Part shown: positions 462 through 28,084 of the stretch, one piece after another
How positions within the stretch are numbered: position 1 is the first letter of the stretch
Layout: each line of letters starts with the position of its first letter
Assembly: GCA_964509365.1 (NCBI GenBank)
Contig: CAZDWN010000005.1
Span: forward strand, 1-54,707
DNA: 54,707 nucleotides
Source of the DNA: an uncultured Pseudomonadales bacterium
GTDB taxonomy: Bacteria > Patescibacteriota > Microgenomatia > UBA1400 > UBA12028
Reading direction: 5' to 3'
Notes under the pieces: model-generated
The model's input: the letters and a program-made list of their open reading frames with translations, nothing else
Told to the model about the DNA's origin: nothing
Databases searched by the model: none
Position numbers and translations under genes: made by a program

Positions 462-1526
462 ATGACAGATACGCATGTTTCTCCATTTGATGAAGCCGTC
501 TATGGAAAGCCTTCGACTTGGTTTTCGCATATCGTGATTGTGAGATCAGACGTGAAGCGAGAGTACTTTCTTACTGACGATGCGTATGAGGCGGAAGCCG
601 AATGCATCGATCGAGCCGAAGTGGTCAGGTCAGAAATTGAGAGTCTCGGGATACGCACGACAATTGTCGTCGCTGATGACAATCTGTCTGATAATTTGTT
701 GAAACTCAAGCCCAATCTTTGCATCAATTTTACTGACTCAGTCCGTGGGCACATGCCATCATGCGCTGGAATCCCTACGATTTTTGATCTGCTGGGTATA
801 CCATATGTGGGAGCCAACACGTTGTGTCTCTCAATCAATTGCAATAAATACTTGACCAAGACATTGCTGCAGGCATGGGAGATCCCAACTCCACAGTTTC
901 AGTTGTTTCACAAAGCCACACAAGAGCTCGAGTACGATTTGCGCTATCCGCTTATCCTCAAACTGAATGAAGAGCATGGTTCCGTGGGTATCTCCGAGGC
1001 ATCTGTAGTGACCAATGAGAAAGAACTTCGCGCTCAGTTGCAGTTCCTCATCTCGACATACAAGCAACATGTCTTAGTCGAAGAATTTATCGAAGATGGA
1101 AGAGAGCTGACGGCGCTTGCTCTCGAGTCGGATAAGCTTCGAGTCAATATGAGTGAGCGAGTGTACGAAAAAATTACCGAAAATTTTAAGCTGATTACGT
1201 TTGAGTTCAACTACGCCGATGAGCATGGCATCCCGGTGACGTTTGAGCACAAGCAATTTATCGATCACTCGGGGAAGATTCGTGCAGATATCCGAAAGGC
1301 CTTTGAGATCCTCAAGATGGATGATATCGCCAGGTTTGATATTATGCTGGATAAATATGGGAACCACTACATTATCGACTGTAACAGTAATCCATCGTTT
1401 GGCCCAAATGAGGCAGTGGCAAGTATCGCCAAAGTGAACGGAAAGTCATTCCAGTCAGTCCTCGTCCAGGTACTTTGGCGAAACATGATGGACCTCAAAG
1501 AGCCCTCCACCAGCCTGACAGCGTAA
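462..1526 (+). CDS. ATP-grasp family ligase (D-Ala-D-Ala ligase-like)
   Basis: 354-aa ORF. The central and C-terminal parts show an ATP-grasp pattern (YPLILKLNEEHGSVGISEASVV, LVEEFIEDGRELT, FDIMLDKYGNHYIIDCNSNPSFG). Confidence 0.65.
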   Translation: MTDTHVSPFDEAVYGKPSTWFSHIVIVRSDVKREYFLTDDAYEAEAECIDRAEVVRSEIESLGIRTTIVVADDNLSDNLLKLKPNLCINFTDSVRGHMPSCAGIPTIFDLLGIPYVGANTLCLSINCNKYLTKTLLQAWEIPTPQFQLFHKATQELEYDLRYPLILKLNEEHGSVGISEASVVTNEKELRAQLQFLISTYKQHVLVEEFIEDGRELTALALESDKLRVNMSERVYEKITENFKLITFEFNYADEHGIPVTFEHKQFIDHSGKIRADIRKAFEILKMDDIARFDIMLDKYGNHYIIDCNSNPSFGPNEAVASIAKVNGKSFQSVLVQVLWRNMMDLKEPSTSLTA

Positions 1527-1539
1527 GCTCGCTGGCTGC

Positions 1540-1568
1540 TGGCGAGAAGAGCCTCTCTCTGGTATAAT
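1540..1568 (+). promoter_or_regulatory. candidate extended -10 promoter of rpsA
   Basis: TGG-TATAAT (1560-1568) matches the extended -10 form TGnTATAAT. Weak -35 TGGCGA (1540-1545) at 17-nt spacing. Confidence 0.45.
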
Positions 1569-1601
1569 TGACGCTTCTCAAAGAAAGGGGAAATTTATCG
1601 T

Positions 1602-2774
1602 ATGCCGAAGAAAAAAGTAACCACAGAAGCCGAAGCTAGCGAAACAACCGCAGCAGAGCCAGTCGTCGCACCTCAAAAGAAAGAGGTCGCAAAAGCAAAA
1701 ACCATGGATGAGCTTCTCAAAGCCACCGGGTACATGCTCAAATCTCCAAAGAAAGGAGATCTGGTTACCGGAATCGTAACCTCACTTTCACGAAAATTCG
1801 TCCAAGTTGATATCGGCGGAAAAACCGAAGGAATTGTCACTGACAAGGAATTCGAAGCGGCCGTCGATTTTGCCAGAGAGCTGAAAGTCGGCGAGACCGT
1901 CAAAGCCTTCGTCGTCTCAGCTGAAAATGATCGAGGTCAAATCTTGTTGTCATTTAAGAAAGCTGCAGTCGACCAGAAATGGGATGCCTTCAAGTCAGCT
2001 ATGGATGACGGCACGATCGTCACTGTTCGCGGCTTGGAGCTCAACAAAGGTGGAATGATCGTCTCGTACGAAGGAGTCCGCGGATTCGTCCCGACTTCTC
2101 AGTTTGGGAAGACTGTCATTGGCGAGCTCGAGTCTCTCTTGGGAAAGAGTTTCAAAGTGAAGATTATCGAAGTCGACCGAGAGAAGAATCGATTGATTTT
2201 CTCAGAACGTCACGTCTCTGAAGAGGAACTCATCAAGCAGAAGACCGCCGCTTTGGATGCAGTAAAGGTTGGAGAAGTGTACGAGGGCGTCGTGTCAGGA
2301 ATCCTGTCATTTGGAGCCTTTGTAACTCTCTGTGTGCCTATGGAAGATGGCAGCCAAGGACATATCGAAGGATTAGTCCATATTAGCGAGATTTCTTGGG
2401 AGAAAGTCGAAGACCCAAATAAATACGTCAAAAGTGGAGATACAGTGAAAGTCAAAGTCTTGGCAGTTGATCAAGCTTCTGGCAAACTCACTTTGTCTAT
2501 CAAACAGACCAATGATGATCCATGGGCAATCGCAAAGGAAAAATACCCAGAAGGAACGGTCGTCGCTGGAGTAGTCTCCCGAGTCGCCCAATTTGGTATC
2601 TTTGTTCACTTGGAAGCAGGTATTGATGGTCTCGTCCATATCAGTAAAATTGTAAACATGGAGATGCCACGAGTCGGTGAAGAAGTCAGTGTCACGGTCG
2701 AAAGTGTTGACCCAGGTGCCAGACGTATGAGCCTCTCGATCACTCCGACAGAAGTGCCAGTAGGATACAAGTAA
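1602..2774 (+). CDS. rpsA: 30S ribosomal protein S1
   Basis: 390 aa with four tandem S1/OB repeats (GDLVTGIV.., G.IVTVRG.., GEVYEGVVSGI.., GTVVAGVVSRV..) and repeated GxxGLVHIS motifs. GGGGAAA SD upstream. Confidence 0.9.
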   Translation: MPKKKVTTEAEASETTAAEPVVAPQKKEVAKAKTMDELLKATGYMLKSPKKGDLVTGIVTSLSRKFVQVDIGGKTEGIVTDKEFEAAVDFARELKVGETVKAFVVSAENDRGQILLSFKKAAVDQKWDAFKSAMDDGTIVTVRGLELNKGGMIVSYEGVRGFVPTSQFGKTVIGELESLLGKSFKVKIIEVDREKNRLIFSERHVSEEELIKQKTAALDAVKVGEVYEGVVSGILSFGAFVTLCVPMEDGSQGHIEGLVHISEISWEKVEDPNKYVKSGDTVKVKVLAVDQASGKLTLSIKQTNDDPWAIAKEKYPEGTVVAGVVSRVAQFGIFVHLEAGIDGLVHISKIVNMEMPRVGEEVSVTVESVDPGARRMSLSITPTEVPVGYK

Positions 2775-2786
2775 GGAGCAAAAACT

Positions 2787-2942
2787 ATGAGTAAGCAACG
2801 AATGATCGTCATGGACGACCAGCTACTGGTCGATATGGATCTTCTGTTCAATGCCATTCGCGAAGCGAACGGTGACTGGCAGAAAGTCGAACAGGAAATG
2901 CAAGCCTACCTTGAGGCAGTCCAAGGAATGATTAAAGAATAA
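2787..2942 (+). CDS. small hypothetical protein (51 aa, below the ORF-track cutoff)
   Basis: ATG at 2787 preceded by a strong AAGGAG SD (2773-2778). Frame open to TAA 2940-2942 (MSKQRMIVMDDQLL...QGMIKE). An intrinsic terminator follows. Confidence 0.5.
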   Translation: MSKQRMIVMDDQLLVDMDLLFNAIREANGDWQKVEQEMQAYLEAVQGMIKE

Positions 2943-2948
2943 TCAATA

Positions 2949-2983
2949 AAAGCCCACAAGTAGAAATACTCGTGGGCTTTTTA
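2949..2983 (+). terminator. rho-independent terminator after rpsA and the small ORF
   Basis: AGCCCAC (2951-2957) pairs with GTGGGCT (2972-2978), with inner AGTA/TACT pairs, then TTTTT (2978-2982). Confidence 0.75.
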
Positions 2984-2990
2984 GTTGTCT

Positions 2991-4694
2991 ATGAAAAAAA
3001 ATCCAACTCTTCCTACTTCACTAGAGAATCAACTCAACTCCTTTTTGACTTTACAATCGGAGCGAGTCATGTCACGCCAACTAAGTAATGGTGCGAAAAA
3101 AGAGATGGGTAAGATGTTTGAGTGGATTCGTTCATTTGGAGAAATGTATGCTTTGTCACGAATCCATCGAGCATTGGACGTCGTCAGTGATGACGTCAAA
3201 AAGGCACAAAAATTAGCTAGAGCCTACATTGGAGAAGGAAATCATGATTTTTTTGCCACCTGTGTTGATGGGAGAAACATGCCTACTGTCATGTTCACCA
3301 AACCTCCTCATGTCGGTGGAGTATTGAGAGCGCCTGCAGGTGCTCTCACTGGCTTTATGGAAGGACAGAAAAGTCAAAGCGTGTTCATTGATGATGATTC
3401 TTTCGTAGTTAAACAAATTCAGAAGCTCCTCATTGAGCGTGCAGGTGAAACAATCTTTTATGGATTAGATTCACATTTGGGCTGCGCTGCACGTGGATTG
3501 ATCCATTCCACTGAGGGAGGAAAACAGCTCGATGCAGGACTCCGAAGCGATGTCAAAAGCAAATTAATGACCGCGCGGGGAATAATTCAGTTGCGAGAGA
3601 AACTCGTATCCAACGGTGTTCAAGCGGCAGAAGTCATACCAGTCTTTTTTTCTTACGACCCACATAGTGGTGGAGTCGTATCCGGATTAGAGATGTACGT
3701 GGACGATCCCCAAGTCTCAGAAGAAGGATACACCGACTCGATTCTCGATACGCTCGCGATTGAAGGCAAGATTATTAGGACAATAGACCTTTTAGAAGAT
3801 CCAGAGATATTGCAGCAATTGAATGCGGTGATTCAACCGAGCTCAAGCAATTTTGAGGAGAGATTTGCACAAAGCATGCTGGCAAACTGGAAGGCTGTGA
3901 CTTCACTCTATGACGGTGGGGCAGGTGTCATCTTTGAGAAGATTCTCAAACTATTGGTGCAAGCTTACACGAAGGGGGAGTGGATAATTTCTGATCATGA
4001 CAACATCCAGCTGCACCAGATTTCAAAACGTGCCATCAAACAAAAAGCAAAGTTTCTGCTCAAGAATTTATTGACTCGATATTCCATAGCAGGAGCATCA
4101 CATAAGTGGCCGTACGGGAATCACAAGGAAGATATGGTTGTGATTACAGACGGAGGATATGCACCATTTGAGAAGATCAATGCTTTTGCTGTTTTCTCGA
4201 GGGATTTGAATGCCTTACTTCCAAACACAAAACTGACAATTGACCTTATTCGAGGTTTTCGAAAATCCGGAGGAATAGTCGACCCTGTTGTTGAGTCAAA
4301 ACTGTCGGCCGAAGAATTTTGGAGTGCGCCCGTCTTAATCACAAACAAGGCAGTTTTTAGGCAAGCAAGCGACAAAGCATGTGAAGTTATGGAAAATGTC
4401 GACTTGGCATCAGTATTTTCAAATATAAACTGGGATGATACGAGTGTGCTTTCGTGGAAGAAATCAGATATCGCTGATCTCCTCTTAAAGGTCCATCAAG
4501 TAACACCAGTTTCTTTGCCAATGACTGATAGTCTCGGCTACGTAGATGTGCTATTTGAATTATTTGATAGAATGCGAATCATGATGAAAGACAAATACTT
4601 TCGCCATATGATTTTGAATGGAAATATTGTGATCTTGAACCTCATTGTTGATGCAGATCGCAAGCCCATCGTGATAGTCCCATTTGTGATTTAA
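2991..4694 (+). CDS. uncharacterised CsoSCA-like / beta-carbonic-anhydrase-motif protein
   Basis: 567-569 aa (ATG 2991, or TTG 2985 in the track). It has TCVDGR (Cys codon 3261) and, 71 residues later, SHLGCAARG (His 3474, Cys 3483), which together form the CxDxR...HxxC beta-CA zinc-site signature. AT-rich codons. No SD, and the start abuts the upstream terminator. Confidence 0.8.
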   Translation: MKKNPTLPTSLENQLNSFLTLQSERVMSRQLSNGAKKEMGKMFEWIRSFGEMYALSRIHRALDVVSDDVKKAQKLARAYIGEGNHDFFATCVDGRNMPTVMFTKPPHVGGVLRAPAGALTGFMEGQKSQSVFIDDDSFVVKQIQKLLIERAGETIFYGLDSHLGCAARGLIHSTEGGKQLDAGLRSDVKSKLMTARGIIQLREKLVSNGVQAAEVIPVFFSYDPHSGGVVSGLEMYVDDPQVSEEGYTDSILDTLAIEGKIIRTIDLLEDPEILQQLNAVIQPSSSNFEERFAQSMLANWKAVTSLYDGGAGVIFEKILKLLVQAYTKGEWIISDHDNIQLHQISKRAIKQKAKFLLKNLLTRYSIAGASHKWPYGNHKEDMVVITDGGYAPFEKINAFAVFSRDLNALLPNTKLTIDLIRGFRKSGGIVDPVVESKLSAEEFWSAPVLITNKAVFRQASDKACEVMENVDLASVFSNINWDDTSVLSWKKSDIADLLLKVHQVTPVSLPMTDSLGYVDVLFELFDRMRIMMKDKYFRHMILNGNIVILNLIVDADRKPIVIVPFVI

Positions 4695-4706
4695 AGGTAA
4701 AAGAAT

Positions 4707-5723
4707 ATGTCAGAAAAAAGAACTTTCCATAATTTTCGTGATGCCGTAAAACGAATTGCGAATGAACAGAACTATGATCTCACCGATCCCGCCATGCGTG
4801 CTTTTTGTATGGGCTTTGTTGTGGGTTTGATCGATCAAGGAAAGGTTGATCTCTTGCATGACGAATATGTTCGCGGTAAAGAAGCTGGCGAAAAAGTATT
4901 GGCACGAAGAGATAATTTTTATGCGGGACTTGTTAAAAGCCCAGATCTCTTACTTTCCACGACAGATTCTGTTCATATCGCTGGAGGTGTCTTACCAGTG
5001 GTATTTGGCGAAAAGGAAAATCAACTTTGGCGAGAAATTGTGATAGCAGCTGGTGAGAAGAAATCTATTCAATTTGTGCATCAAGATTTCTCTTTACAAG
5101 AACTTGAGCTTATTGGCGAGTTCGCACGATTTTTGCAAGAAAAGGGAAAAATCCCAACATGTGTAGATGAACGACTGTGGTATGCAAATGGAGAGTACAC
5201 GAAATTGGTTCATTGCGATTGTGGAGCCTGTAAAGGAATTGGACAAGTAATTGGCGCAAAAAGCTCTGTTGAAGACATGCTACATCGAGAGTTTGCTCCA
5301 GGATCAAATAAAAGACCAATCCAACCTGGTATGAGTGATCACAGAAGTACTACCATTTACGTCGACCTGGGCAAAGATTCTCGCACGCTCAACAGAGAAG
5401 CCAGATTACACGCTCGATTTGAGGCGGGACTCCCATTTCATGCGAGTTTTCCAATAGAGTTGCTGAAAGCGTTCATTGTGTTGAAGCGAAAATCAAAAGA
5501 AGGATTTTCGGATGAAAATCAACAAATCCTCATTCAGGCCTGGACCAAATTTAATGTTGGCGTCCCGCGTGCAATAATAGGCGGTCATAATAGAGATGCT
5601 CATCTAGCGGACAATACGCAAATAGTGTTAAACACAAGTGGAGTGGCAAAATCAGGACTTCTCAATACTGTAGTTGAGCAGATCGAGTCTGTACCCCATG
5701 AAAGAGTTCTTCGTATTGCATAA
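4707..5723 (+). CDS. uncharacterised protein with a compressed CxDxR / HxxCG motif pair
   Basis: 338 aa, starting 12 nt after the previous stop, with AAAGG upstream. It has TCVDER (Cys codon 5160) and, 17 residues on, HCDCGACKGIG. Confidence 0.75.
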   Translation: MSEKRTFHNFRDAVKRIANEQNYDLTDPAMRAFCMGFVVGLIDQGKVDLLHDEYVRGKEAGEKVLARRDNFYAGLVKSPDLLLSTTDSVHIAGGVLPVVFGEKENQLWREIVIAAGEKKSIQFVHQDFSLQELELIGEFARFLQEKGKIPTCVDERLWYANGEYTKLVHCDCGACKGIGQVIGAKSSVEDMLHREFAPGSNKRPIQPGMSDHRSTTIYVDLGKDSRTLNREARLHARFEAGLPFHASFPIELLKAFIVLKRKSKEGFSDENQQILIQAWTKFNVGVPRAIIGGHNRDAHLADNTQIVLNTSGVAKSGLLNTVVEQIESVPHERVLRIA

Positions 5724-5734
5724 ATACTCTGAAA

Positions 5735-5764
5735 TTGACTTTCATAGACCAGTTTTGCTATAGT
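5735..5764 (+). promoter_or_regulatory. candidate sigma70-type promoter
   Basis: TTGACT (5735-5740), 18-nt spacer, TATAGT (5759-5764). Predicted TSS near 5771, just before the ATG at 5778. Confidence 0.5.
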
Positions 5765-5951
5765 CTCCCATAAGACTATGGCAGTCCAAGAACGTGAGTC
5801 TCTTCACCAAAAGAGGCAGCTTGCGTCACAGACAGAGGCGCTTGCACCAGCCTGAATACGAACACTGGCTACACCCGAAGCCACCCCATCTCAATTTCCT
5901 GCGTCAATTTTTTCTGCTTTACCAAAACAACTTCTCCCGTACCTTGATCAA

Positions 5952-6623
5952 ATGGGGATCATCCGTCTCGTGAAGGAAGGCTATCGCTTGCAAGGGACGG
6001 ACGAACAAATTTCTACATGGGTAGAAGAAGAGTTTACGCAAGATCTTCGTGACCCGCAGGTTCTCCTTTCGATGCATCCAAATAGACCTGAACAAGTTGG
6101 AGCGCTCCTCATCGTGGGTCGACCAACGTACATCGGTCGGAAGGGCCTTGAGATCGGTGGTGTGATTATTGCTTCCGATCACCCGAACAGAGGTGTCGGT
6201 GGTGCAGCTGACCAACTCATGCGACATGCAATTGAAAAATATGACCCACATTTTGTCATCGGCGCAACTATTAACATTAAAGCCATGCTGTTGCGGAATC
6301 GCGTCACTGAGCCTATGGGATTTAGCAGCATGGCTGGGCGAATTATGTTAAATGAGAACTGGGATGCGCAGATGCTTTATGAAGCTGAGCAAATAGAAGA
6401 ACGTTATGTTCAAGATCATCAGGGAAAGCGACGAAATGCAGTGATCGTCGAAGTGTCTTCTGAGTATCTTGAACCTATTCATCCGTCAATGAAGCGGACA
6501 TATCCAAAACCGTACGATGAGATCCAAGAACAAATCTTTTTTCATCAGCAACTGCTTGGTACAAAGGGAACCGCGAGCGTGATATTACTTTCCATTAAAC
6601 AGAGAGAACGCCTACAGATGTGA
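5952..6623 (+). CDS. GNAT-family N-acetyltransferase (putative)
   Basis: 223 aa. IIASDHPNRGVGGAADQLMRHAI fits the GNAT acetyl-CoA motif R/Q-x-x-G-x-G/A. No SD. The frame is open upstream as far as TGA 5853. Confidence 0.55.
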   Translation: MGIIRLVKEGYRLQGTDEQISTWVEEEFTQDLRDPQVLLSMHPNRPEQVGALLIVGRPTYIGRKGLEIGGVIIASDHPNRGVGGAADQLMRHAIEKYDPHFVIGATINIKAMLLRNRVTEPMGFSSMAGRIMLNENWDAQMLYEAEQIEERYVQDHQGKRRNAVIVEVSSEYLEPIHPSMKRTYPKPYDEIQEQIFFHQQLLGTKGTASVILLSIKQRERLQM

Positions 6624-7028
6624 TAACAGCCACGGAACGTAGATTCCAGCTAATACTCCCTGGAAAGTTCCCCAAGCCAAATCAATAATTGTGATGTCGA
6701 GTGGCCAGTCTTTGACAAACGACAAACTCGTGAGGTCATACGTGGCATACATGACAAAACTCACAAATGCTGTGATCGCGACAACAGATACACTTGGCCC
6801 CCCATAGATTTTTGAAGCCATACTGGCGACGACAAACAGTCCAGCAGCGATGGTGGCTTGCGTCAAGAGTCCGACTGGAAGATTGAAGACTATAGAGTTG
6901 TTCTTCACTTTTGCCAAATAGGAAAGCTTTTGAAAGTAGAGGCGATTTGAGACGAATCCAAGCCAGATCATGTCGACGATGATAAAAATAATGATACTCG
7001 CGAGCAGGGGAAGGATTTTAAATTGCAT
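6612..7028 (-). CDS. DUF2177-like integral membrane protein
   Basis: Preferred start is MQFKILPLL at 7028, which overlaps the fur stop (ATGCAATTTAA). Motifs DMIWLGFV, TYDLTSLSFVKDWP and IIDLAWGTF are typical of DUF2177. Four predicted TM helices. Confidence 0.7.
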   Translation of the reverse strand: MQFKILPLLASIIIFIIVDMIWLGFVSNRLYFQKLSYLAKVKNNSIVFNLPVGLLTQATIAAGLFVVASMASKIYGGPSVSVVAITAFVSFVMYATYDLTSLSFVKDWPLDITIIDLAWGTFQGVLAGIYVPWLLSHL

Positions 7029-7383
7029 GTGCACAAGTATGACACAAACCAAACAATGTTGTGTGGTGATGATGGACTTCAAAACCCTCAATTGTTGTCG
7101 GGCTATCGGTCACACAGTCTATCTTTTGAATGCTGCCGCATCGCTCGCAGACAAGATGGTCATGATGTGACTCCCGTAATTCATACACGATGGTCTGACC
7201 AGTGAGGGTCTGTTTGCACAAGATTCCATCTTCAGAAAGTTTCTCCAGCGCTCGATACACCGATGTTTTATTGACCGACACTCCTCTTGCATCAAGTTGC
7301 GTGAGAAGATCAGGCGCCGACAAAACGTGCAGTGATTGCAGCACAGCGATGATTTCAGCGGAGAGAAGTGCGGGGCGTCCCAT
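7018..7383 (-). CDS. fur: Fur-family metalloregulator
   Basis: 121 aa with an N-terminal winged helix (VYRALEKLSEDGIL), then HHDHLVCERCG and a C-terminal CHTC. This is the Fur/Zur pattern. Confidence 0.85.
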   Translation of the reverse strand: MGRPALLSAEIIAVLQSLHVLSAPDLLTQLDARGVSVNKTSVYRALEKLSEDGILCKQTLTGQTIVYELRESHHDHLVCERCGSIQKIDCVTDSPTTIEGFEVHHHHTTLFGLCHTCAHAI

Positions 7384-7401
7384 AGAAGAGACAATTATAC
7401 G

Positions 7402-7938
7402 CTACTTGAGTAGTGGTAGGGCAGCATCTTGCACCGACAAGATCGGGGTCGAATTTGGGAGCAGCGGCCACTCGACTGCGATCGTTGGATCATTCCACAT
7501 GATGCCGGTACTACTTTCCTTGTTGTAGACGCCACCGGCAATCTTGTACGAGAACTTTGCTTCGCCTGAAAGCACGTAAAACCCATGAGCGAAACCGGCG
7601 GGAATATATAACATCTGATGATTCTCTTCAGAGAGAGTCTCGCCTATCCAATTCCCGTAGGTAGGTGACTGCGGGCGCAAATCAACAGCGACATCAAAGA
7701 CTTCTCCAGCGACGACACTGACTAGTTTTGCCTGCGCATAGGGATCTTTTTGAAAATGAAGCCCTCTTAAAACTCCCTGCTTTGAAGTACTCAAATTGTC
7801 CTGAATAAAGGAATCGTGAATACCAAGTTGCTCAAACTTTGCTTGATTGTAGCTTTCAAAGAAACTACCTCGCTCATCGGTAAATACATCTGGGGAAATC
7901 AGGAGTACATCGGGGATTTTTGTTGGTGTTACGTTCAT
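7402..7938 (-). CDS. rmlC: dTDP-4-dehydrorhamnose 3,5-epimerase
   Basis: 178 aa. IPDVLLISPDVFTDERGSFFESYN, VLRGLHFQ, GEVFDVAVDLR and IPAGFAHGF closely match RmlC/RfbC. Confidence 0.9.
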   Translation of the reverse strand: MNVTPTKIPDVLLISPDVFTDERGSFFESYNQAKFEQLGIHDSFIQDNLSTSKQGVLRGLHFQKDPYAQAKLVSVVAGEVFDVAVDLRPQSPTYGNWIGETLSEENHQMLYIPAGFAHGFYVLSGEAKFSYKIAGGVYNKESSTGIMWNDPTIAVEWPLLPNSTPILSVQDAALPLLK

Positions 7939-27205: not shown

Positions 27206-28084
27206 ATGGACACAGAAGCCAAACTTTCCGACTTTCACGCCCAATTTTTACAGGATCTTCAGACCAAAGGCCGTGCCGGCGCAACCGTCGTCGCCTATGG
27301 AAAAGATATTGAACAATTTTTGGCATTTTTAGCAACCAAGCTTCAAAAAGTGACGATTGCGAGTGTCGAAAGTGCAGATATTGAAAGTTATAAGGGCCAA
27401 TTGGCGAGTGAAAATTATACGGATAAATCAATTTATCGAAAAATTAATTCGATCAAATCGTTCTTCCGCTTCTTGCGTGGGATTGGTGTCATCGCCGAAA
27501 ACCCTGCAAATACCGTCTCTCACCCAAAGTATGACTTGGCGGACCCTCGAGTCTTGACCAAGCTTGAGTATCGCGCGCTTCGAGACGCATGCCGAGCTGA
27601 CAAGCGTATCTCGACCATCGTCGAAGTGCTGTTACAGACAGGTATGCGTATCAGTGAACTGGCAAACCTTGAAGTCGAAGATGTCGATCTTGAAAATCAA
27701 ACGATTACGGTCCGTCCGCAAGAGTCGCACGGTCAACGACAGATCCCTTTGAATAATGCTGCAGTCAGTGCGATCAAAGAGTATTTGGAAATTCGTCCAA
27801 AAACTCGCCAAAAAGCGTTGTTTGTCACCAAGACGTGCCGACCTTTCCTGGTCCGTAACATCCGTACGGCAATTGACCGGTATTTCAGACTCGCAGGTAT
27901 CAAAGATGCAAAGGTCAACGATCTTCGTCATACGTTTATCGTCCAACAACTTGCCGCCGGTACTCCTCTGGTGTACGTCAGCCAATTGGTCGGACACAAA
28001 CGCATCACAACGACTGAAAAATACCTCAAACTGCTTCAAAACAATGCAGACTTCCAGACACAGATGAAGGTGGAAGAGCTCTAG
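27206..28084 (+). CDS. tyrosine recombinase, XerC/XerD type
   Basis: 292 aa with an N-terminal SAM-like domain, then the catalytic residues ...TGMRISEL..., LRHTFIVQQL, GHKRITTTEKY. Confidence 0.88.
   Translation: MDTEAKLSDFHAQFLQDLQTKGRAGATVVAYGKDIEQFLAFLATKLQKVTIASVESADIESYKGQLASENYTDKSIYRKINSIKSFFRFLRGIGVIAENPANTVSHPKYDLADPRVLTKLEYRALRDACRADKRISTIVEVLLQTGMRISELANLEVEDVDLENQTITVRPQESHGQRQIPLNNAAVSAIKEYLEIRPKTRQKALFVTKTCRPFLVRNIRTAIDRYFRLAGIKDAKVNDLRHTFIVQQLAAGTPLVYVSQLVGHKRITTTEKYLKLLQNNADFQTQMKVEEL

Follow-up and report, generated by a model that had tools for sequence, protein, structure and literature searches.

In the 54,707-nucleotide stretch of contig CAZDWN010000005.1 analysed here (the window), two adjacent genes, A and B, occupy positions 2991 to 5723, and the predicted structure of the product of gene A places it within the beta-carbonic anhydrase (beta-CA) superfamily, with an architecture like that of the carboxysome shell enzyme CsoSCA. 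Gene A (2991-4694) encodes 567 amino acids (aa) from an ATG start, and its modelled product is a sequence-orphan, non-carboxysomal, CsoSCA-like pseudo-dimer, i.e., a two-lobed protein of the beta-CA fold that lies outside the CsoSCA sequence family. Gene B (4707-5723; 338 aa) belongs to a family whose members have about 280-350 aa and carry a Cys/Asp/Arg/His/Cys signature like that of the beta-CAs, to which the family may or may not be related. Neither protein has been characterised before. Genes A and B, their motifs and spacer, the hairpin before A and the short ORFs on either side of the two genes lie on the forward strand. The reading that we prefer is that A is a CsoSCA-like zinc enzyme, that B represents a separate and probably zinc-binding family and that the pairing of the two genes is lineage specific; we would give this joint reading a probability of about 60%. 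The reading frames, the invariance of the motifs, the predicted folds with their matches and the gene neighbourhoods are direct results of the analysis, whereas we infer that the proteins bind zinc and are catalytically active, that the genes are transcribed together and what they do in the cell.

The placement of A is carried by its predicted structure. The AlphaFold2 model (predicted local distance difference test score, pLDDT, 91.1; predicted template modelling score, pTM, 0.89) was compared with the PDB by Foldseek, and the five matches with an E value of at most 1e-3 were all CsoSCA chains, from three entries. The best was the H. neapolitanus enzyme 9G4T (E 1.3e-6, probability 1.00), with template modelling (TM) scores of 0.45 when normalised to the query and 0.55 when normalised to the target, followed by three chains of the Cyanobium enzyme 8THM and then by 2FGY; across the five chains the E values ran from 1.3e-6 to 2.2e-5, the probability was 1.00 and the target-normalised TM-scores were 0.47-0.55. 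The next match was the fused two-domain Porphyridium beta-CA 1DDZ (E 1e-3), after which came many ordinary single-domain beta-CAs (E 0.2-1.5). An earlier reading of the sequence by itself (the initial annotation) had suggested that A resembles CsoSCA rather than an ordinary 200-aa beta-CA, and the identity of the five best fold matches bears this out.

In the model, A consists of a helical N-terminal domain (residues ~9-80), a beta-CA catalytic domain that contains the putative zinc site (~84-340) and a degenerate, beta-CA-like C-terminal domain (~346-567). C91 lies directly after strand 84-90, and H162 and C165 are preceded by strand 154-160 and followed by helix 166-174; the zinc ligands of beta-CAs sit at these same places, i.e., at a strand end and between a strand end and a helix start. 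The strand-helix series of the second lobe (380-386, 397-402, 448-455, 546-553 and 559-563) repeats the pattern of the first, with D387 at the place of the first lobe's Cys and with no His or Cys after the third strand, so that A would have one putative zinc site per internal pseudo-dimer, as read from the order of the secondary-structure elements. The two-lobed layout that had been surmised for A is, hence, present in the model, with a second lobe devoid of ligands.

The residues of the putative site are strictly conserved. The first motif, C91-V-D93-G-R95 (3261-3275), would provide the first zinc ligand and the Asp-Arg dyad, and the second, D160-S-H162-L-G-C165-A-A-R168 (3468-3494), would provide the second and third ligands in an HxxC arrangement. 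The codons of C91, H162 and C165 begin at 3261, 3474 and 3483; these positions, that of the first motif codon of B (5160), the two reading frames, the 12-nt gap between them and the Cys-to-His spacings of 71 and 17 residues in A and B had all been given exactly in the initial annotation. Homologues of A form 91 clusters, and in an alignment of 49 of them (A1; 27-62% identity) C91, D93, G94, R95, D160, S161, H162, C165, A166, A167 and R168 are invariant. Related loci were numbered L001 onwards, and among 37 further A loci from GTDB species representatives (L009-L045) every full-length copy has CxD[GR]R and D[SA]HxxC, with 69-73 residues from Cys to His. This conservation is more than chance. 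Two Levyibacteriota metagenome-assembled genomes (MAGs) hold tandem, diverged A paralogues (L038, 6836-10392; L042, 1279-4612) that are 25-28% identical, and both copies in each retain CxD[GR]R and HxxC. In the second lobe, the first strand and its following loop, V383-VITDGGYAP-F393 (4137-4169; strand 380-386 in the model; residues 383-394 read VVITDGGYAPFE), are flanked or accompanied near D387 by residues that are also invariant in the 49 sequences (H378, E380, G389 and P392). An alternative TTG start at 2985 would extend A to 569 aa, and the database gene call begins at M27, giving 541 aa; the ATG at 2991 is the real start rather than M27 because the homologues keep the first 26 residues, among which Q14 and Q22 are nearly invariant in the same alignment.

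The B protein carries a similar set of residues in a different setting. An exhaustive HMMER search recovered 61 representative clusters of B at E values of at most 1e-3, where a word-indexed search had given one relative; a further homologue search with the B alignment returned three proteins, none of which added to the family, and a related-locus search with B alone in Joint Genome Institute (JGI) metagenomes found nothing, although it succeeded with the sub-alignment A3. In the resulting alignment of 52 sequences (A2; 20-64% identity), C152, D154, R156, H169, C172, G173 and H212 are invariant, and E155, A174, N283, H294 and N295 are nearly so. The AlphaFold2 model of B has a pLDDT of 94.3 and a pTM of 0.92. 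It places C152-V-D154-E-R156 (5160-5174) right after strand 149-151, H169-C-D-C172-G-A-C175 (5211-5231) at the start of helix 173-181, and the extra invariant H212 (5340-5342) just before strand 216-220. The local context of the motifs is thus beta-CA-like: a strand followed by CxDER, then HxxCG at the start of a helix, then a strand. The first Cys and H169 are 17 residues apart, the five-residue signature is compressed into 21 residues, and where beta-CAs have ~55 residues between the two motifs, B has a 12-residue loop. B could be either a beta-CA core that has been cut down radically or a site that arose by convergence; it is a separate, uncharacterised family that is not detectably a beta-CA, with a predicted fold that has no known relative. 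B, too, is probably a zinc protein.

Several results weigh against the joint reading. No sequence method ties A or B to any carbonic anhydrase (CA) family. For A there was no family match in Pfam or NCBIfam, and the CsoSCA, beta-CA and DabA families (PF08936, PF00484 and PF10070), the first two of which the initial annotation had named as the check, gave no match at E values of up to 1. Nor did any of these three appear among the 25 families shown, out of 35, in the Pfam results of the 49 homologues, where a single unrelated domain of unknown function was matched by more than one member. Searches of PDB sequences by phmmer with A and by the A family profile returned nothing, the profile finding no CsoSCA chain; the A alignment compared with E. 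coli Can by hhalign gave a probability below 1%; and a profile-profile comparison of lobe 1 with lobe 2 of A found no significant similarity. NCBIfam, PADLOC and PHROGs had no match for either protein. The structural resemblance of A to CsoSCA comes with moderate TM-scores and a root mean square deviation of 9.5 Å, and the canonical HxxC of A (His-x2-Cys) differs from the H-x10-C of CsoSCA. For B, Foldseek found no match at an E value of up to 1e-3 in the PDB or the viral library BFVD; its best matches had E values of at least 0.15 and probabilities of at most 0.23, with no CA among them. Every member of the B alignment was compared with Pfam, with no match below E 0.017 and no family matched by more than one member; PF00484 did not match B, nor did PF10070 at E values of up to 1; and the B profile was not significantly similar to that of A, or by hhalign to Can (probability below 1%). 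The suggestion that B, too, is like a beta-CA or CsoSCA thus found no counterpart in detectable fold or sequence similarity, and its motif could be a structural or convergent zinc site. Finally, CO2 hydration by A is only the default guess because there are known cases, the COS and CS2 hydrolases, in which a beta-CA scaffold has taken on another function.

It might be supposed from these negative searches that the motifs mark structural or vestigial zinc sites in non-catalytic pseudo-enzymes or regulators. The lack of sequence similarity to active CAs would agree with this, as would the 17-residue separation of Cys and His in B and their position on a loop. An Asp-Arg dyad would, however, have no role at such a site, and it is invariant in both families; in B, the invariant pair argues for a catalytic over a purely structural zinc site. 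Moreover, the CsoSCA-like fold predicted for A would put the residues in catalytic positions. We therefore regard a purely structural or vestigial role as very remote.

On the preferred reading, A would most likely be a cytosolic zinc enzyme made of a single chain of two beta-CA-type lobes, of which lobe 1 alone would keep the ligands C91, H162 and C165 together with D93 and R95, while lobe 2 would be a degenerate copy. Its chemistry would most likely be attack of a zinc-bound hydroxide on CO2 (i.e., interconversion of CO2 and bicarbonate) or on a closely related small linear molecule, and it would serve reactions that need bicarbonate or CO2 in a Patescibacteria cell of the Microgenomatia type, for which the window shows no carboxysome genes. 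B is a member of a different, faster-evolving family, likely a zinc protein and probably co-transcribed with A.

A different substrate would follow if A, and possibly B, were a repurposed beta-CA scaffold acting on carbonyl sulfide (COS), carbon disulfide (CS2), a cyanate-related compound or another heterocumulene, with the two proteins perhaps catalysing successive steps of a pathway. There is precedent in the COS and CS2 hydrolases, and the A family is too diverged for any CA hidden Markov model (HMM) and has invariant residues of its own in lobe 2 (H378, E380, G389, P392 and R424). The diversity of proteins with CxDxR...H...CG motifs beside A homologues (see below) would also be easier to understand if there were several substrates than if the task were that of a single housekeeping CA. 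Against this, CO2 hydration calls for precisely this full set of Cys/His/Cys and Asp-Arg residues; genes of sulfur, cyanate or other pathways are not regular neighbours at the A and B loci; and a two-step pathway sits poorly with the observation that A and B are usually apart. We consider a change of substrate unlikely.

Genes A and B are separated by 12 nt, AGGTAAAAGAAT (4695-4706), which include a Shine-Dalgarno-like AGG; the terminator and promoter scan called nothing in this spacer, and A and B are probably co-transcribed because neither a terminator nor a promoter fits within it. The same adjacency recurs in L007 and L046, with spacers of 10-11 nt. Compared with the window, A is 68% and B 36% identical in L007, and A is 63% and B 34% identical in L046, so that within this subclade B has diverged about twice as far as A. 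The order of genes downstream in L046 is that of the window: Fur, a dTDP-sugar (RmlC-type) epimerase, PilB, PilC and a response regulator.

Such adjacency, kept in the same order at 10-12 nt in three loci despite the low identity of B, is what a dedicated heteromeric enzyme would be expected to show, with B supplying or regulating an active site by analogy with the inter-subunit sites of beta-CA dimers. It would also be consistent with the way in which B or another CxDxR protein takes the place of A after the ribosomal protein S1 gene, a small open reading frame (ORF) and a 200-aa gene, or adjoins A. The wider distribution of the two genes speaks against it. In the early set of A loci, tblastn and the B HMM found B only in the window, L007 and L008; six A loci from Logan or NCBI were without a B-family gene; in the GTDB A loci (L009-L045) the B HMM had no match, and the CxDxR neighbours there are thus not members of the B family; and in all, about 35 distinct A loci other than the window, L007 and L046 have no B-family gene within about 10 kb. 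Conversely, A is missing from the available sequence of about 13 distinct B loci, several of them on contigs shorter than 2 kb. The A chain is, in addition, already an internal pseudo-dimer that needs no partner lobe, and the rate at which B evolves is about twice that of A. Hence, B is not an obligate partner, as most A genes are without B and most B genes without A: the two are independent families, and their pairing is specific to the lineage of the window's subclade. The dedicated partnership proposed in the initial annotation therefore survives as an adjacency in three loci and fails as a general rule, and we think a heteromeric enzyme quite improbable.

The loci in which B occurs without A have settings of their own. 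In L049-L052 the S1 gene is followed by the small ORF, then by the gene for a conserved protein of 200 aa and then by B. B lies between the S1 and radA genes in L048, adjoins purine genes in L047, and in L057, L058 and L062 comes after the genes for a response regulator, for a histidine kinase and for a secreted protein of small size. In these genomes both A and B are mostly found in a variable region on the downstream side of the S1 gene. In L057, L058 and L062 (L057, 65-3626; L058, 5524-9521; L062, 5330-9441) the block consists of an OmpR-type regulator, a histidine kinase, a ~155-aa secreted protein and B. In L058 and L062 a ~200-aa methyltransferase-type gene (confirmed by Pfam in L058) comes after B and a large protein lies further downstream, which in L058 is an HtrA-like protease. 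The presence of this subgroup of B in a response-regulator block hints at a regulated, envelope-related role in these loci.

A homologues are often accompanied by other proteins with a comparable signature. Proteins with their own CxDxR and H...CG motifs adjoin A homologues in L001, L004, L005, L006, L010, L028, L034, L039 and L043, and in L008 the B homologue adjoins one. Such proteins are encoded at 1177-2067 (minus strand) of L008, 7230-7976 of L006, 5333-6148 of L011, 11506-12330 of L012, 1710-2516 of L039, 4212-4901 (minus strand) of L028, 7525-8673 (minus strand) of L043, 6663-7910 of L005, 2608-3759 of L004, 3179-4459 (minus strand) of L034 and 6871-7836 (minus strand) of L001, with a version of about 305 aa in L040 and L043. 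Among 279 ORFs of at least 100 aa in the first loci, CxDxR is almost confined to A, B and these neighbours. Seven of the neighbours are weakly related to one another (pairwise BLAST E values of 1e-8 to 1e-5) and share the pattern CxDxR..PGxxG..HTDxH..GCG; we refer to these as family X. The five CxDxR...H...CG neighbours that were scanned had no credible Pfam match, and the family X profile was not significantly similar to the zinc lobe of A (E 0.004, probability 9%), the alignment being anchored on the motifs alone. These observations suggest a lineage-specific radiation of beta-CA-derived proteins. A bolder combination of claims is that B is a new structural class of CA-type zinc enzyme, its pentad being convergent or minimised; that A, B, family X and the other CxDxR...H...CG proteins form a radiation specific to Patescibacteria with diversified substrates; and that A is a deep sister lineage bridging canonical beta-CAs (HxxC) and CsoSCA (a pseudo-dimer with one site). 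We hold this combination to be doubtful as a whole.

The initial annotation had also raised the possibility that A and B were acquired horizontally, on the grounds that both are AT-rich and use AGA, AGG and ATA codons. This bias is real but modest. Compared with a mean GC content of 0.473 (standard deviation 0.022) over 39 genes, A (0.427) and B (0.422) rank third-lowest and lowest; the GC content at third codon positions (GC3) is 0.32 in B (z -3.4); AGA and AGG make up 0.32 and 0.36 of the Arg codons of A and B, compared with 0.16; and ATA makes up 0.21 and 0.24 of the Ile codons, compared with 0.10, these enrichments having z values of 1.3-1.7. In overall codon-usage distance neither gene is an outlier, however, and some other genes of the window without a role in translation or transcription are equally rich in AGA/AGG or ATA. 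The location of A points the same way: in the window, as in six relatives (L004, L005, L006, L013, L030 and L031), A comes after the S1 gene, and L046 shares the downstream order. All named A records are from Patescibacteria MAGs (Pace-, Roizman-, Beckwith- and Levyi-bacteria, Microgenomates and Peribacteria), and no integrase or repeats flank A and B, the sole integrase-like gene of the window being at 27206-28084. The conserved position downstream of S1, the restriction of named records to Patescibacteria and the terminator-like hairpin before A (see below) argue for vertical inheritance, with probably low expression, over recent transfer. A recently acquired island is thus highly improbable, and the claim of horizontal acquisition is not upheld. 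Many of the GTDB records with A (L010, L011, L013, L018, L019 and others) are titled 'uncultured Gammaproteobacteria' or 'Pseudomonadales', which look like placeholder mislabels; the order S1, 200-aa gene, A in L013 is that found on L005.

The remainder of the window is that of a housekeeping region. It encodes a D-Ala-D-Ala-ligase-like ATP-grasp protein, ribosomal protein S1, type IV pilus genes, GroEL and FtsK, as well as alanyl-tRNA synthetase (AlaRS), RpoB/C, S7, the elongation factors EF-G and EF-Tu, and ribosomal proteins. The Pfam scan covered most window ORFs of at least 150 aa (a few at 6.6-11.7 kb were judged by eye) and found housekeeping genes, pilus genes and ORFs with no match, with no RuBisCO, bacterial microcompartment (BMC) shell protein or bicarbonate transporter; the absence of a carboxysome context reported initially thus stands for the scanned ORFs. 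The annotated neighbours of six A homologues likewise include no cso operon, RuBisCO, CsoS2 or shell genes.

Expression of A and B is probably governed from further upstream. A hairpin with a GC-rich core followed by TTTTT (2948-2981) ends 10 nt before the ATG of A; the scan reported it on the minus strand. It folds with -21.7 kcal/mol (z -6.25), and an Rfam search of 2600-6100 found no credible family, the best match scoring 26.7 bits against a gathering score of 60. The hairpin looks like the terminator of a unit formed by the S1 gene and the small ORF, placed within the leader of A, and could instead be a regulatory leader. As no promoter fits between the hairpin and the start of A, transcription of A and B probably comes about by read-through or begins at a promoter that lies upstream of the hairpin or inside the small ORF. 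This ORF, directly after the S1 gene (2787-2942; 51 aa; MSKQRMIVMDDQLLVDMDLLFNAIREANGDWQKVEQEMQAYLEAVQGMIKE), has an AAGGAG ribosome-binding site and recurs, highly conserved, in the corresponding place in L004, L005, L006, L008, L048, L049 and L051. In relatives, the gene of a well-conserved ~200-aa family, with the N-terminal pattern MxYVITCGDEGVQINEG, separates the small ORF from A or B (L005, 4130-4735; L013; L026; L049, 3539-4147; L051, 3078-3674). This family is absent from the window, and the one member scanned had no Pfam match. Downstream of B, a 223-aa ORF (5952-6623) has its own promoter-like site at 5735-5764; it had no match in Pfam, NCBIfam, PADLOC or PHROGs and, by BLAST, no counterpart in L001-L052 or among genes within six of B in L055-L068.

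These findings bear on both the history of the carboxysomal enzyme and the biology of the host phylum. CsoSCA was once held to be a separate class of CA owing to its divergence. A third CsoSCA-like lineage that is invisible to sequence methods, and in which a pseudo-dimer is combined with a canonical HxxC, would be a new outgroup for the origin of the carboxysomal enzyme; if A is indeed a bridge lineage, it bears on the question of that origin. Our results also suggest that some Patescibacteria may handle inorganic carbon with an enzyme now annotated as 'hypothetical'. In B, a confidently predicted fold without a structural relative is combined with an invariant beta-CA-type signature, and it could reveal a new construction of the active site. 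Should A and B both prove to be plain CAs, the gain would be one of annotation for a poorly annotated phylum. Full-text literature searches brought up no paper in which such a family in Patescibacteria or the candidate phyla radiation (CPR) is connected with CsoSCA or carbonic anhydrase.

Among known systems, two other assignments were considered and set aside. DabA (PF10070, also DUF2309) is a large, diverged, beta-CA-like subunit of the DAB inorganic-carbon pump, with a Cys/Asp/His/Cys site, and it functions outside carboxysomes; A or B as a DabA-like pump subunit is rejected, with no PF10070 match and no DabB-like gene beside A in the neighbourhoods annotated by Pfam. A role as defence or phage genes is rejected on the lack of PADLOC and PHROGs matches and on the housekeeping context.

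The canonical beta-CAs (PF00484; E. coli Can, 1DDZ) share with A and B the motifs CxDxR and HxxC in the same order, and the secondary-structure context of these motifs is matched by A. They differ from both in lacking any HMM or profile similarity to them, and from A in the number of active sites per dimer or pseudo-dimer, which is two in the canonical enzymes and one, putatively, in A. B has their signature but with a 17-residue Cys-His gap and no match to the beta-CA fold.

The closest comparison is with CsoSCA itself (CsoS3, PF08936; 2FGY, 8THM, 9G4T), the best fold match of A. Both are about 500-570 aa long, and in CsoSCA as in the model of A a helical domain at the N-terminus is followed by the catalytic beta-CA lobe and then by a degenerate lobe. 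CsoSCA has one Cys/His/Cys site and Asp-Arg dyad per chain; in A, the motif residues that could form such a site lie in lobe 1 only. Pulsford et al. regarded the single zinc site per pseudo-dimer as a defining feature of CsoSCA (PMC11086599). In the H. neapolitanus enzyme the zinc ligands are C173, H242 and C253, i.e., with a Cys-to-His spacing of 69 and H-x10-C (PMC12646314), so that the spacing in A (71; Cys-x70-His) is close to that of CsoSCA (Cys-x68-His). Unlike CsoSCA, A has no sequence similarity to the family, no cso operon, RuBisCO or shell genes among the scanned ORFs of the window, and a Patescibacteria-type host. The carboxysomal forms have an N-terminal 'hook' and hexamer features (PMC11086599). 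It was not until 2024 that relatives outside carboxysomes were recognised, and then only within the Pfam family: this 'non-cso' clade consists of PF08936 members that are pseudo-dimers with a single predicted zinc site, shorter than the carboxysomal forms and encoded outside carboxysome operons, reportedly next to NAD- or [Fe-Ni]-hydrogenase and permease genes (PMC11086599). In contrast to that clade, A is undetected by PF08936, has 567 aa and is encoded next to ribosomal protein S1.

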